Shown: positions 45,860 to 63,388, numbered from the stretch's first letter. The stretch is DNA of 64,000 nucleotides from a virus (IMGVR_UViG_3300012933_000371:25989-89988), one strand, 5' to 3'. The notes: generated from the sequence alone by a model not told the origin. A program made the numbers and translations.

Positions 45860-46336
45860 ATGGCTAAAATTAACCGCGTTGCAATTTACGACATGGACGG
45901 CACGATTGTAGATTCAAGCCACCGCTATCGCACAATTACTGATGAAAATGGCGAGCGTATAGATTTGGATTTTTGGCGAGAAAATGAATATCGCGCAATG
46001 GATGACGGATTGTTGCCCATGTTTTCACAATATGAAAAAGATTTGGCTGACGAAAATTGTTATACAATTATTGCAACTGCGCGGGTAATGAACGAACCAG
46101 ATTGGCAATTCGTAAACGAAATTTTAGGCGCTCCAGATTATTTTATTTCTCGCCCTGCGGGTTCTGATATTTCAGGCAAAACGCTAAAAATTAATGGCCT
46201 TGCAAAATTCTTTAATCTGGTAACTTTCAAAGATGCTGATTTTGTTTTTTACGAAGATAATATTAGCTATCTAAAAGCCGTTTGCGATAGGTTTAATATT
46301 CGCGGGGTTTATATCCCAAGCGTTCAAGGCCATTAA
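45860..46336 (+). CDS. HAD-superfamily phosphatase (PNK 3'-phosphatase / nucleotidase-like)
   Basis: YDMDGT, IATAR, K and YEDN: HAD motifs I-IV. Confidence 0.8.
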   Translation: MAKINRVAIYDMDGTIVDSSHRYRTITDENGERIDLDFWRENEYRAMDDGLLPMFSQYEKDLADENCYTIIATARVMNEPDWQFVNEILGAPDYFISRPAGSDISGKTLKINGLAKFFNLVTFKDADFVFYEDNISYLKAVCDRFNIRGVYIPSVQGH

Positions 46337-48651: not shown

Positions 48652-48978
48652 ATGACTGCAAAAACTGTAAACTACACCGCCGAGCAAACTGCTAAGATTG
48701 TGGCCGATTATTTGGCTGGCGTGACTGTCGAAGCCTTGGCCGCTGAATTGGGAAAATCAGCCCGTTCGGTTGTTGCGAAATTGTCACGCGAAGGCGTATA
48801 TAAGGCAAAAGTATACAAAACCAAAACTGGCGCGGCTGTGGTCAAAAAAGATGCTCACGCCGATGCAATCGGCGCTATTTTGCAATTGAGCGAAAATGAA
48901 ATCGAAAGTTTGACAAAAGCAAATAAAACTGCGCTGGAAAAGATTTTTTCAGCACTTGCAAATTCTAAGCCAGTTTAA
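48652..48978 (+). CDS. T5 A2-like protein, paralogue 2
   Basis: Highly similar to 43588-43911; own promoter TTGAAA-17-TATAAT. Confidence 0.6.
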   Translation: MTAKTVNYTAEQTAKIVADYLAGVTVEALAAELGKSARSVVAKLSREGVYKAKVYKTKTGAAVVKKDAHADAIGAILQLSENEIESLTKANKTALEKIFSALANSKPV

Positions 48979-49671: not shown

Positions 49672-49989
49672 ATGATGACTAAAGAAACCAAAACAGTAAA
49701 CTACACTCCAGAACAAACTAAGGCAATTGTGGAGGCATACCAGGCAGGTGCTAGCGTGGAAACTATTGCCAAGGAAATGCAAAAATCCACTCGAAGCATT
49801 GTTGCTAAGCTGGCTCGTGAAGGTGTGTACCAAGCCAAATCTAAAGCCAAGGGCACTCAAGCTCCACGCAAATCCGAGTTGATTACTCAAATTGCTCACA
49901 GCATCGGCACTAACGAAGAGTTGATCGAGTCGCTTGAGAAAGCTACCCGCGAAGCTTTGGAGCTGATTGCAAAGGCTGTTAAACAGTAA
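49672..49989 (+). CDS. T5 A2-like protein, paralogue 3
   Basis: VNYTPEQT...Y.AG..VE.IA...KS.RSIVAKL.REGVY; promoter TTGACG-17-TACAAT (49607-49635). Confidence 0.6.
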   Translation: MMTKETKTVNYTPEQTKAIVEAYQAGASVETIAKEMQKSTRSIVAKLAREGVYQAKSKAKGTQAPRKSELITQIAHSIGTNEELIESLEKATREALELIAKAVKQ

Positions 49990-50014
49990 CAGTTTAGGGT
50001 CAGAAAAAATAAAC

Positions 50015-50043
50015 TTGCTCTGACCCTCTTTTTGCGATATAAT
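50015..50043 (+). promoter_or_regulatory. sigma70 promoter of the long ncRNA
   Basis: TTGCTC-17-TATAAT, -35 embedded in the AGGGTCAGA/TCTGACCCT hairpin. Confidence 0.75.
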
Positions 50044-50270
50044 TATTACTTAGAAAACGAAATAACAACACTGGGACAGCCTGCCACGCTAACTAATTTA
50101 ATCTTGAATACGCAAGCTGTCCCATGTTATAATAATATATCTACTCAGCAAACAGATTACTCAACGAGTCTGTTTGGTAAGTAGTCTGTTTTTGGTGTTA
50201 TGAGCCCAGCCATATATAGCTGGATAACAACTTAATGGTGACCGAAATCTCTAGTCACCGCCTCCCCTAC

Positions 50271-50369
50271 TCCTCTGATGAGCTTATGAAATTTAAGCGA
50301 AACCCAAGCCTTCGTGGCAAGTGTGCGAGCGTCTCCCACCGTTCCACTTGCTACACCTTAGGGTCAGGA
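50271..50369 (+). ncRNA. Type I hammerhead ribozyme
   Basis: CUGAUGA 50275-50281; stem II GCUUA/UAAGC; GAAA 50299-50302; stem III CCC-AAG/CUU-A-GGG extended by GUGGCAAGUG/CACUUGCUAC; GUC ending at 50365; stem I UCCU/AGGA. Confidence 0.8.
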
Positions 50370-50700
50370 CGAAATCCCTAGCGCGTACCACTTGCTGGTG
50401 TTAGGTAAAGAGTAACTCCTAGGTAGCCTACCCTATACCTAAGGCCCCGCTCCGCTATGATCGGGTCACGACTAAACTAGAAATGACCCTAAACTGTGGA
50501 GGGTGCAATAATATATCCAGTCGACTCAGGTTTGCAAAGTCGTTAAGTGTGAGCGCATTCAAGATCCTCCTACTCAGCTAAATCCTTTTATTAACCAAAA
50601 CCAAAGGTAACGCAGTTTAGGATCAGGCAATAAGAGTCCAAGTTGGTTACTTGGCAGTAAGGCTCCTGATTTGGAATAAAAACTTAGTGACGACTAGTTC

Positions 50701-50740
50701 AAAAGCCCCTTCATCCGCAAGATGTTGGGGCTTTTGTTTT
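50701..50740. terminator. Bidirectional intrinsic terminator
   Basis: AAAAGCCCC...CATC-CGCAA-GATG...GGGGCTTTT GTTTT. Confidence 0.8.
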
Positions 50741-50758
50741 GCCTATACGCTCTGCGCC

Positions 50759-50787
50759 ATTTTACCATAGTGCGACAGCAATGTCAA
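50759..50787 (-). promoter_or_regulatory. Leftward sigma70 promoter followed by GGCGC
   Basis: Minus strand TTGACA-17-TAAAAT-GGCGC, firing into the 50701 terminator. Confidence 0.7.
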
Positions 50788-50899
50788 GTGAGTTTTCTAC
50801 GACTTCTGACCCTAAACCGCATAAACTTGGAGAACCTCAAGCACCCACACGCGCTTGACCCTAAACTTGGCCAGTTGACGCCAGAGGCGTCCAATTTGC

Positions 50900-50934
50900 C
50901 CCCACAAAGTACCCACGTAAAAAAGCCCGAATAT
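50900..50934 (-). terminator. Intrinsic terminator
   Basis: AAAAAAGCCCGA...TCGGGCTTTT downstream of A2-like paralogue 4 (coordinates approximate). Confidence 0.55.
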
Positions 50935-50980
50935 CCTGCGATATCGGGCTTTTTGTCGAATTAACTCAAATTATGTCGAA

Positions 50981-51301
50981 TTAATTCAATTTAGGGTCAG
51001 ATTTGGACTCCAAATTCTGTTCGATCATTAACAAGACCTGTTTATTGACCTTTTCTAGGCTTTCGAGTAGCTCTAGGTTGCATTGTAGCAATTCTGCAAT
51101 CCGTTCAATGTGTTCTGACTTTTTTGTTGGCACCTCACCGCGTTTGTTGAGGTACTGCTTTTTTTGGTAGACACCCAGTGAGCTGAGCTTGGCAATAATG
51201 CTGCGTTCTGGCACCTGGAACTGTTGAGCTAGTGCTTGGACGGTCACACCGGCTTGATAGTCTGCGATCAACTGTTTGGTAGATTCATTTGTGTATTTCA
51301 T
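50981..51301 (-). CDS. T5 A2-like protein, paralogue 4
   Basis: MKYTNEST...ADYQAGVTV.ALA.....ERSIIAKLSSLGVY...RGE...KK.EH.E.IA..L......LESLEK. Confidence 0.6.
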   Translation of the reverse strand: MKYTNESTKQLIADYQAGVTVQALAQQFQVPERSIIAKLSSLGVYQKKQYLNKRGEVPTKKSEHIERIAELLQCNLELLESLEKVNKQVLLMIEQNLESKSDPKLN

Positions 51302-51303
51302 GA

Positions 51304-52278
51304 TTAAATCTCCCAAGGTAAGTCTGAACCATCGCTTTTTGATACATACTTATTTTGAGCAGTTTGGGGTCTAAACAAATCTGTAACAATTAGAGGTGCT
51401 GGCATAGAATCCCAACTCTCAGGATCTAAAACCATATACGGAGTACGATTACTTGGGTGTGCACACCAAATTTGGGAATACATTACTTGAGCTAAGTGTG
51501 GTACTGCTTGTAAACATCCGCCTTTTGTAGACCATAATTTAAAACTACTTTGTGGATTACGGCTTTCACCCCTTTTAGGGCCACTTTGATAAATTAACCC
51601 TAATTCACGAGCTTTTAAAATATCTTCTCGTGTATAGTTGCCTTCATGAAGCATTGCTTCACATAAACTATCGTTGACTACCCACTTTAGGGTCTTTCGA
51701 TCCCAACGTGAATATGGAATTTTGTGGTGCAGTTTATAAGCATAAGGAATTAGTGGAACTAAAGCACAAAACTGAGCCCCCTCGCCTTTGTACTGGCTAG
51801 AGAGATATGCACTGCGTGAGTCCAGCATTAAAAACATGTATAGTCCACGTTCCCATTCGCTGTCAAAATCAAAAGCGTGCTTTAAAATCTTGCTGCCATC
51901 AATCTGACCCTCAGCTGTTGAAACTTCCGATAATCGAAATGGTCTATTGGCAATATGTGCCATGATTTGGGGCAGTACTGAAATTAAGAGTGTACTAAGC
52001 TTATATCGTGGAATCCAAATATCTATGGCAGCTTTTTGCCCAGCTTTCTTTCGGACTTCTGCTTTGCTGTACTGTTGAAGCTCTACTTGGTCGCCAAAGC
52101 TGACTTCGCTAGAGGCTTCATGAGTAGCTGCATACCTTTGTTCTAGTGCAGCTACTTCGTTTTCGTATTTGTCTCGTACATGCTGTTCCATACCCTCAAC
52201 TGCAGCGTCTGCAGCGTCTGTATAGATTTCATATAGTTTGTCAAACGGGATTGTTTTAAGTTGTCGGTTAATTATCAT
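51304..52278 (-). CDS. 324-aa protein of unknown function
   Basis: Long ORF, no motif recognised, co-directional with paralogue 4. Confidence 0.8.
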   Translation of the reverse strand: MIINRQLKTIPFDKLYEIYTDAADAAVEGMEQHVRDKYENEVAALEQRYAATHEASSEVSFGDQVELQQYSKAEVRKKAGQKAAIDIWIPRYKLSTLLISVLPQIMAHIANRPFRLSEVSTAEGQIDGSKILKHAFDFDSEWERGLYMFLMLDSRSAYLSSQYKGEGAQFCALVPLIPYAYKLHHKIPYSRWDRKTLKWVVNDSLCEAMLHEGNYTREDILKARELGLIYQSGPKRGESRNPQSSFKLWSTKGGCLQAVPHLAQVMYSQIWCAHPSNRTPYMVLDPESWDSMPAPLIVTDLFRPQTAQNKYVSKSDGSDLPWEI

Positions 52279-63313: not shown

Positions 63314-63388
63314 ACGCTGTTCGTATAATGGATAATACAACTGACTTCTATCCAGTGAATGTGGGTTCGATTCCTGCACGGCGTACCA
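63314..63388 (+). tRNA. trnR: tRNA-Arg (anticodon UCU)
   Basis: Acceptor ACGCTGT/ACGGCGT, D arm GTAT/ATAC, loop CT-TCT-AT, GGTTCGATTCC T arm, encoded CCA. Confidence 0.9.

Follow-up and report, generated by a model that had tools for sequence, protein, structure and literature searches.

The question raised by this locus is what, if not protein, occupies the gap of about 1 kb between two converging HTH genes, located at 49672-49989 (+) and 50981-51316 (-), in the genome of a freshwater tailed phage that carries genes for a portal protein, a terminase, a major tail protein and a major head protein fused to a protease. The window, i.e., the whole 64,000-nt stretch of DNA that was analyzed, comes from a 90-kb IMG/VR virus record, of which it forms the right-hand 64 kb. 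The sequence-only reading of the locus had proposed one large structured RNA of about 690 nt, delimited by a promoter and a terminator, which could not be assigned to a known class and might be new. According to the analysis presented here, the + strand quite probably encodes a non-coding RNA (ncRNA) cassette made up of a tRNA-like element (TLE), a hammerhead ribozyme predicted to cut after C50365, and a downstream RNA; the transcript would give two products and serve as a tRNA/ncRNA maturation unit.

The lack of long reading frames was confirmed. The longest ORFs inside 50050-50740 encode 50 and 48 aa, and the longest in the whole gap (80 aa, 50722-50964) lies mostly past the terminator that ends the ncRNA. 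The chance that the region consists of small or decayed protein-coding genes is close to negligible. Two gene calls in relative L003 (112 aa, and 120 aa across the homologous stretch) and the 48-50 aa ORFs of the window could be cited in favor of such genes; however, no ORF of the region reaches 60 aa in the window, the relatives differ by short indels (1-4 nt) and, at one position, by insertions of 67-175 nt, and the substitutions are paired across helices and not arranged by codon position. The many stems described earlier do exist, and the + strand folds at -204.5 kcal/mol, with z = -4.0 against shuffled sequences. The - strand folds better (z = -7.0) and therefore folding energy alone cannot assign the strand.

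Related loci were collected through the neighboring 324-aa anchor protein, which has 226 homologues in public metagenomes. The search for related loci with one protein as the query gave no match, whereas an alignment query succeeded; the anchor homologues and a profile search together yielded 66 syntenic loci, two of the closest contigs not being among them. The relatives are phages of about 100 kb from freshwater and other environmental samples, and in their gene order the anchor is followed by an HTH gene (110 aa), then by 1.1-1.8 kb poor in genes, and last by a gene whose product matches Phage_T5_A2. No match to cultured phages was obtained by blastn of the region or tblastn of the anchor protein. 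Among public sequencing runs, none of RNA was listed for the stretch, and only seven of DNA, all of them from freshwater or river samples, contained small shares of its words. When the gap was compared with the loci by BLAST, 50173-50427 showed 70-80% nucleotide identity in loci where the anchor protein is 30-35% identical, and in L027 the identity was 78% over 197 nt despite an anchor protein about 35% identical. Nucleotide identity that is kept while the anchor protein has diverged is a pattern typical of functional RNA. The most conserved part of the region, 50192-50369 (+), comprises the TLE and the hammerhead. The TLE has the following parts:

50192-50264 (+): tRNA-like element without a D arm, supported by covariation
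50192-50196 with 50260-50264 (+): TLE stem P1, acceptor-like and short
50197-50199 with 50229-50231 (+): TLE stem P2
50206-50209 with 50220-50223 (+): TLE hairpin P3; a 5-nt linker stands after P2 and before P4
50237-50242 with 50254-50259 (+): TLE stem P4, T-arm-like, 6 bp, with loop CGAAAUCUCUA

One copy of the TLE per locus was found by nhmmer in 37 sources, the window included. Across the relatives the acceptor-like stem has 3-5 bp and continues for another 3 bp, beyond which lie an internal loop and a hairpin that varies. In an alignment of 33 sequences (A4), 90% of the cells were paired and covariation was 0.566 as compared with 0.167 in shuffles (0/500). All six pairs of P4 covary and 99% of its cells pair, and stem P1 contains a U-G pair in 29 of the 33 sequences. 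Two registers were tried for the second helix, of which GUU/AAC was favored. In about one quarter of the relatives the TLE ends in GCCC-A-CCA, exactly 5 nt before the ribozyme core. Neither ARAGORN nor Rfam reported a tRNA at 50192-50264, and the covariation model departs from the cloverleaf, since both the D arm and the anticodon loop are missing and the acceptor-like stem has 3-5 bp instead of 7; the element is therefore regarded as tRNA-like only. The related loop (CGAAATCTCTAG / CGAAATCCCTAG) that had been reported to occur twice was indeed located at 50243-50254 and 50370-50381; the former forms the T-arm loop of the TLE and the latter lies 4 nt past the predicted cleavage site of the element that follows:

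50271-50369 (+): type I hammerhead, 6 nt downstream of the TLE
50271-50274 with 50366-50369 (+): hammerhead stem I, UCCU/AGGA
50275-50281 (+): hammerhead core CUGAUGA
50282-50286 with 50294-50298 (+): hammerhead stem II
50299-50301 (+): hammerhead GAA
50302-50309 with 50357-50364 (+): hammerhead stem III
50314-50323 with 50345-50354, and 50327-50331 with 50340-50344 (+): helices inserted in stem III
50365 / 50366 (+): predicted self-cleavage in GGGUC+AGGA, at the GGGUC / AGGA boundary, C17 being 50365

The layout is UCCU-CUGAUGA-(stem II)-CGAAAC-(stem III 5' strand)-(45-nt two-helix insertion)-(stem III 3' strand)-GUC / AGGA. The RNA ends exit via stem I, and the hammerhead is thus of type I. 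The cut position was taken from the hammerhead numbering, with A15.1-U16.1 as a pair and C as H17. In an alignment of 27 rows (A2), U4, G5, A6, G8, A9, G12, A13 and A14 were invariant and C3 was kept in at least 90%, while N7, a position at which hammerheads tolerate variation, was U or C. The cleavage triplet was GUC or GUA in the relatives matched by a regular expression, a pattern that itself admitted only C, A and U at H17; in the MAFFT alignment the H17 column was C in at least 90% of the A2 rows. The A15.1-U16.1 pair was kept in 27/27 and 52/52 sequences.

The helices are likewise supported by compensatory changes. In the MAFFT alignment of 27 sequences, 84% of the cells of the hammerhead structure were paired as compared with 70% in shuffles, 23 of the 33 pairs had double changes, and covariation was 0.404 against 0.177 in shuffles (0/500) and 0.07-0.12 in slid controls. 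The corresponding values for 52 sequences were 0.545 and 0.183, in an alignment that was fitted to the model and leans towards it. In the MAFFT alignment covariation was seen for stems II and III, and stem I is represented there by three almost invariant pairs; in the model-fitted alignment of 52 sequences all five pairs of stem I have double changes, and such changes were also seen by eye in five relatives (L009, L010, L016, L043, and L048). One pair of stem III is U-G in 17 of 27 sequences. The frequent U-G pairs in the hammerhead and the TLE would be A-C on the opposite strand, and the + strand is therefore taken to be the RNA strand. With the core, the cleavage triplet and three covarying helices present, the center of the RNA, for which no known class could be offered before, is judged from its sequence to be a hammerhead ribozyme, and it should cut after C50365. 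A stem I of just 3-4 bp in most members, the window among them, and an A-A mismatch or bulge in stem III of the window count against this reading, as do the low Rfam score described next and the more stable folding of the - strand.

The Rfam comparison suggested earlier was carried out, and no family was found at gathering score in the region or in 16 relatives. The sole hint was a match of Hammerhead_3 to 50249-50308 with 18.9 bits, far below its gathering score of 48.5. This low score is due to the stem III insertion, which the Rfam models do not allow, and the failure to reach threshold thus lies with the models rather than with how the ribozyme is defined. A hammerhead at gathering score was likewise not found in the 16 relatives, and for L030 no hammerhead match of any score was reported with E up to 10. 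At the same limit, no Rfam match to twister, pistol, hatchet, HDV-like, T-box, tmRNA, GOLLD or ROOL was obtained in the window region or L030. A covariance model (R1) was built from the 27-row hammerhead alignment, with the window's own sequence among the seed rows; it scores the window copy, one of those 27 rows, at 107 bits. When 77 related sources were searched with R1, 55 matches (E <= 0.01) were obtained, in nearly every case a single one per locus and at the same syntenic place, so that the hammerhead is present in more than 50 related phage loci at one position. Two tandem copies were found in L045, and L016 has two hammerheads in tandem. This genome has exactly one match. A second hammerhead at the sense motif 50613-50626 was considered and rejected, no CUGAUGA/GAAA core being present upstream and R1 finding one copy in the genome. 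A pattern scan of genome contigs returned 31 stretches, which is about the chance expectation, of which R1 confirmed two; both lie on tiny contigs binned into MAGs and hence no host can be inferred from them.

There is precedent for hammerheads that cut phage transcripts, namely the type I hammerheads of bacteria and phages (Perreault et al. 2011, PMC3088659; Rfam clan CL00010). The present element shares with them an identical core, a GUC/GUA triplet, three helices and ends that leave via stem I, as well as an intergenic position in phage and occasional tandem copies flanking a short unit. It differs from the known type I hammerheads in the conserved 45-nt two-helix insertion of stem III and the 3-5 bp of stem I, in scoring below every Rfam hammerhead threshold, in its fixed position directly after a TLE or tRNA-Glu, and in a substrate strand that matches a genome-wide motif.

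The place directly upstream of the ribozyme links the cassette to tRNA-Glu. Relatives carry insertions of up to 175 nt at one point between the TLE and the ribozyme, and in many of them the insertion is a genuine tRNA whose encoded CCA adjoins the ribozyme ('..ACCA-ACCCU-CUGAUGA'). When 20 loci were examined with ARAGORN, 12 tRNAs were found in 11 loci, all 12 being tRNA-Glu(UUC) and none of another isotype; eight of the 12 abut the hammerhead, and L045 has two tRNA-Glu plus hammerhead units in tandem. The cassette of the window is without tRNA-Glu, unlike those of many relatives, the sole canonical tRNA of the window being tRNA-Arg(UCU) at 63314-63388 (+). As the module adjoining the ribozyme is often a real tRNA-Glu(UUC) in relatives, the cassette would be a unit for the maturation of tRNA and ncRNA. 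Among the papers covered by the literature search, none on a hammerhead leading into phage tRNA-Glu was found.

A parallel to this link is provided by theta ribozymes, i.e., minimal HDV-like ribozymes, which sit next to phage tRNAs and have been proposed to act in RNA maturation independently of host nucleases (Kienbeck et al. 2024, PMC10879173). In both cases a small ribozyme, self-cleaving or predicted to be so, is only a few nucleotides away from the 3' end of a phage tRNA, and a similar role in maturation is proposed. However, theta has the HDV-like double pseudoknot whereas the fold here is that of a hammerhead, the tRNA partner here is tRNA-Glu only, and the phages here are from freshwater while those of theta are gut phages. 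No HDV-like fold was found with Rfam, and the core is a hammerhead that would cut at its 3' edge. Cleavage by theta ribozymes takes place at the 5' edge of the ribozyme, whereby the 3' end of the tRNA is released. The cut of the cassette hammerhead would fall about 100 nt beyond that point, at the 3' edge of the ribozyme, and would thus set the 5' end of the next RNA; for the same reason the 3' end of the upstream tRNA or TLE would not be freed, which weighs against the maturation reading.

The signals that would delimit the transcript are as follows:

49996-50034 (+): terminator of the upstream HTH gene, hairpin AGGGTCAGA/TCTGACCCT (49996-50027) and a U-run
50015-50043 (+): promoter P1, TTGCTC (50015-50020), 17-nt spacer, TATAAT (50038-50043)
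50104-50133 (+): promoter P2, TTGAAT-18-TATAAT with TG, extended -10 TGTTATAAT, 10/12; predicted start about 50140
50141-50191 (+): leader hairpin, arms 50141-50156 / 50169-50184, with a U-rich tail
50700-50740 (+): intrinsic terminator ending the ncRNA, readable on both strands, hairpin 50700-50736, U-run to 50740
50759-50787 (-): promoter TTGACA-17-TAAAAT with TG, facing the terminator, 11/12

The promoter of the sequence-only reading, TTGCTC-17-TATAAT, is present as P1, with a better-scoring P2 nearby. The -35 of P1, which falls within the loop of the hairpin that terminates the upstream gene, is weak; it matches the consensus at 3/6 positions only, and P1 is for this reason absent from the promoter scan list. 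The -10 region of P1 (GATATAAT) is kept in L004. The extended -10 of P2 is common to four relatives (L004, L007, L039, and L061) and better conserved than P1. The hairpin at 49996-50027, which contains a sense copy of the TTTAGGGTCAG motif discussed below, is kept with changed letters in L004. Elements resembling the leader hairpin precede the TLE or tRNA-Glu in L029, L035 and L045; the leader also contains a direct repeat, AGTCTGTTT, in two copies 16 nt apart (50167-50175 and 50183-50191), and repeats of this type stand ahead of the cassette, or of its promoter, in three relatives (L007, L029, and L035). The terminator placed earlier at 50701-50740 proved to be real and is present in the computed fold; it is conserved in L004. 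The -35 and -10 of the minus-strand promoter are also kept in L004, and more than 20 loci have a match to the sequence around it (50725-50826). This promoter would yield an RNA of about 55 nt or, via read-through, an antisense transcript of the cassette.

From these signals, transcription of the + strand would begin at the sigma-70-type P2 (50104-50133), possibly also at P1 (50015-50043), and would stop at 50700-50740. A hammerhead cut leaves a 2',3'-cyclic phosphate on the 5' product and a 5'-OH on the 3' product. The intact catalytic core suggests that the cassette ribozyme cuts after C50365, in which case the 5' product would be about 226-316 nt long, contain the TLE and the ribozyme and end in a 2',3'-cyclic phosphate, while the 3' product of about 375 nt would start with a 5'-OH and AGGAYGAAA and contain conserved hairpins. 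The hammerhead could thus be a built-in processing device that splits the tRNA or TLE from the downstream ncRNA and sets the 5' end of the latter. As a separate observation, a 158-aa protein encoded at 45860-46336 (+) gave a match to PHROG 415 'polynucleotide kinase' (E 2.7e-9) and, in Pfam, a weak one to HAD-hydrolase. End-healing enzymes such as polynucleotide kinase act on RNA ends with 5'-OH and 2',3'-cyclic phosphate, as left by hammerheads.

The predicted 3' product has its own conserved features:

50366-50470 (+): conserved start of the 3' product, AGGACGAAAU
50377-50382 with 50400-50405 (+): hairpin P5, recognized by eye, followed by UAAAGAGUAAC
50420-50423 with 50432-50435 (+): hairpin P6 (CUAGGG..CCCUAU)
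50446-50449 with 50462-50465 (+): hairpin P7

It starts with the conserved AGGAYGAAA; P5 then encloses a variable insert and is followed by the single strand WAAUGAGUAR, which is also conserved. The conserved blocks of this product recur in many relatives, and the stretch of about 75 nt at 50409-50485 is 100% identical to L004, the highest identity in the region. Consensus folding of the long-form subfamily recovered three hairpins with compensatory changes, namely P6, P7 and one more, whereas that of alignment A5 recovered P6 alone. For P5, a test of matched versus mismatched helices was weakly discriminating (mean 4.75 vs 4.03 bp). The P7 loop CUUAUCUGGUACCGGCG is conserved in long-form relatives (e.g., L022 and L033) and the P7 loop of the window is without it. 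We take this loop to resemble the T-box sequence that pairs with the NCCA end of tRNA, in which UGGU could pair with ACCA; the Rfam T-box model gave no match.

Whole modules have been gained and lost independently between the relatives. An RNA-like module, GGGUGACAGC..ACGUCUUAAUUGUGG..CCGAGCCACAGCCC, stands upstream of the TLE in L039, L061, L004, L058 and others and is absent from the window. Another, GAAAGAAC..UAAAAUACAGCUAUCAUCUAA, lies downstream of the ribozyme in many relatives and has been lost from the window by deletion.

These data bear on the possibility that the locus makes a single large ornate RNA that acts as one unit in the manner of ROOL or GOLLD, with a hammerhead-like core that is structural or kept inactive. 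GOLLD and ROOL are large phage-associated RNAs from tRNA-linked loci (Weinberg et al. 2017, PMC5737381), and the present locus resembles them as a long, ORF-free structured phage RNA that lies next to or contains tRNA genes. Several conserved domains follow one another from promoter to terminator, a long-range inverted repeat has covarying flanks, and no Rfam family fits, which would all suit one RNA at a tRNA-associated phage locus of this type (PMC5737381). However, unlike GOLLD and ROOL, with which there was no Rfam model match with E up to 10, the locus is modular and not one multi-junction fold, and it holds a predicted self-cleaving ribozyme. The catalytic nucleotides and the GUC/GUA triplet, kept in more than 50 relatives according to the model, would be difficult to explain if there were no cleavage, and the independent gain and loss of domains fits modules. 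No covarying helix linking the two halves across the cut was found besides stem I of 3-5 bp. The missing link between the halves, together with the gain and loss of modules, argues for a modular cassette rather than one large fold, and a single-unit RNA is accordingly considered improbable. The 'Drum' RNA motif had also been considered as a ribozyme-associated RNA and was dropped, as this was not borne out by PMC5737381.

The alignments demonstrate that the TLE and a complete predicted hammerhead are conserved, strand-specific folds within a cassette bounded by putative promoters and a terminator. Of the earlier proposal of a large structured ncRNA, what stands is an RNA that is conserved, strand-specific and covarying in more than 50 relatives, the covariation among homologues that had been called for having been found in both the TLE and the hammerhead; the single 690-nt fold gives way to a modular cassette. 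Its possible novelty is similarly divided: the RNA is real, uncatalogued and without an Rfam family at gathering score, while its core belongs to a well-known class. The hammerhead is of a known kind, and what is new is the arrangement of TLE, hammerhead and downstream RNA.

The substrate strand of the ribozyme, CUUAGGGUC / AGG, is an instance of a motif of 11-13 nt, (C)AGTTTAGGGTCAG, that is over-represented across the genome and has 25 copies with at most one mismatch in the 64-kb window, where 4.65 are expected. The elements concerned are:

50483-50498 (+): antisense motif copy UGACCCUAAACUGUG, 5' arm of an inverted repeat and -35 part of 50483-50512
50483-50512 (+): promoter-like site within the 3' product
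50611-50626 (+): sense motif copy CGCAGUUUAGGAUCAG, 3' arm of the repeat, 116 nt from 50483-50498
48652-48978 (+), 49672-49989 (+) and 50981-51316 (-): genes on either side of the cassette for three small, paralogous HTH DNA-binding proteins (105-111 aa)

Motif inverted repeats downstream of the ribozyme have 14-20 bp with arms 100-310 nt apart, and their flanks differ between phages yet stay complementary (L070, L072, L086, L033, L098, and L024). These repeats could be RNA helices, operators for HTH proteins, or both. The flanking HTH proteins match PHROG 'D5-like regulator / DNA binding' and are candidate binders of the motif; with Pfam, the window's own small HTH proteins gave sub-threshold matches only. 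The 'T5 A2-like' label was taken from precomputed Pfam matches of orthologues in relatives, in which the orthologues of a neighbor gene match Phage_T5_A2, a pre-early gene family. That match is the sole hint that the RNA might be transcribed within the first minutes of infection, as the sequence-only reading had proposed.

The motif could also be taken to mean that the locus is mainly a DNA-level control region, in which TTTAGGGTCAG sites for the flanking HTH proteins, together with promoters and terminators, are under selection. A similar case would be the non-coding block, rich in repeats, in the pre-early region of T5. Seven of the 25 motif copies fall within 49993-50999, i.e., in 1 kb and in both orientations, as against 4.65 expected for the whole 64-kb window, and the same motif is enriched and clustered at this locus in five relatives. 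In the late-gene part (genome 1-67 kb), its reverse complement TGACCCTAAA is co-oriented with the ORFs except for two one-mismatch copies. Some copies supply the -35 of good promoters (e.g., TTGACC-17-TATAAT at genome position 19543), and the three paralogous HTH genes around the region and the conserved minus-strand promoter also speak for a control region. However, control at the DNA level leaves unexplained the strand-specific compensatory changes and G-U pairs of the TLE and hammerhead, as well as the invariant ribozyme core. It could overlap the RNA cassette as a second layer and does not suffice as the only function, and a locus that is mainly a DNA-level control region is considered improbable; the promoter-like site at 50483-50512 and the motif copies in both orientations suggest DNA-level functions that overlap the RNA.

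Within the reading of the locus as a self-cleaving RNA cassette, a further step can be envisaged, i.e., that the TLE and the RNA set free by the hammerhead form a new ncRNA class tied to tRNA-Glu and that the match of the substrate strand to the motif is deliberate, the cassette RNA, with its several motif copies in sense and antisense, pairing with phage mRNAs or titrating a motif-binding regulator. Nearly all the late-gene ORFs holding the motif carry it in antisense. This proposal is doubtful, though not far-fetched; if it were true, the timing of phage gene expression, or else a tRNA-level counter-defence, would be tied to ribozyme cleavage.

The results define a well-populated hammerhead family, with more than 50 public loci, for which the model R1 is ready and whose members stay under the Rfam thresholds both in the window and in the 16 relatives that were scanned. 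The predicted ribozyme has a place in a fixed cassette, together with a tRNA-like fold, tRNA-Glu and a downstream RNA that is uncatalogued. With its defined promoter, terminator, cut site and products, all as predicted, the cassette would be a handy test case for the role of hammerheads in bacteria and phages, and the pairing of hammerhead and tRNA-Glu and the identity of the cut site with a genome-wide motif lead to concrete testable hypotheses.

Beyond the cassette, a second antisense/sense motif pair (50805-50816 / 50990-51001) brackets a two-way terminator hairpin, AAAAAGCCCGA..TCGGGCTTTTT. This hairpin and the repeat adjoining it occupy 50920-50954 and 50951-50990, respectively; the latter is a 20-nt tandem repeat (TTTTGTCGAATTAACTCAAA / TTATGTCGAATTAATTCAAT) located just past the 3' end of the 111-aa HTH gene.
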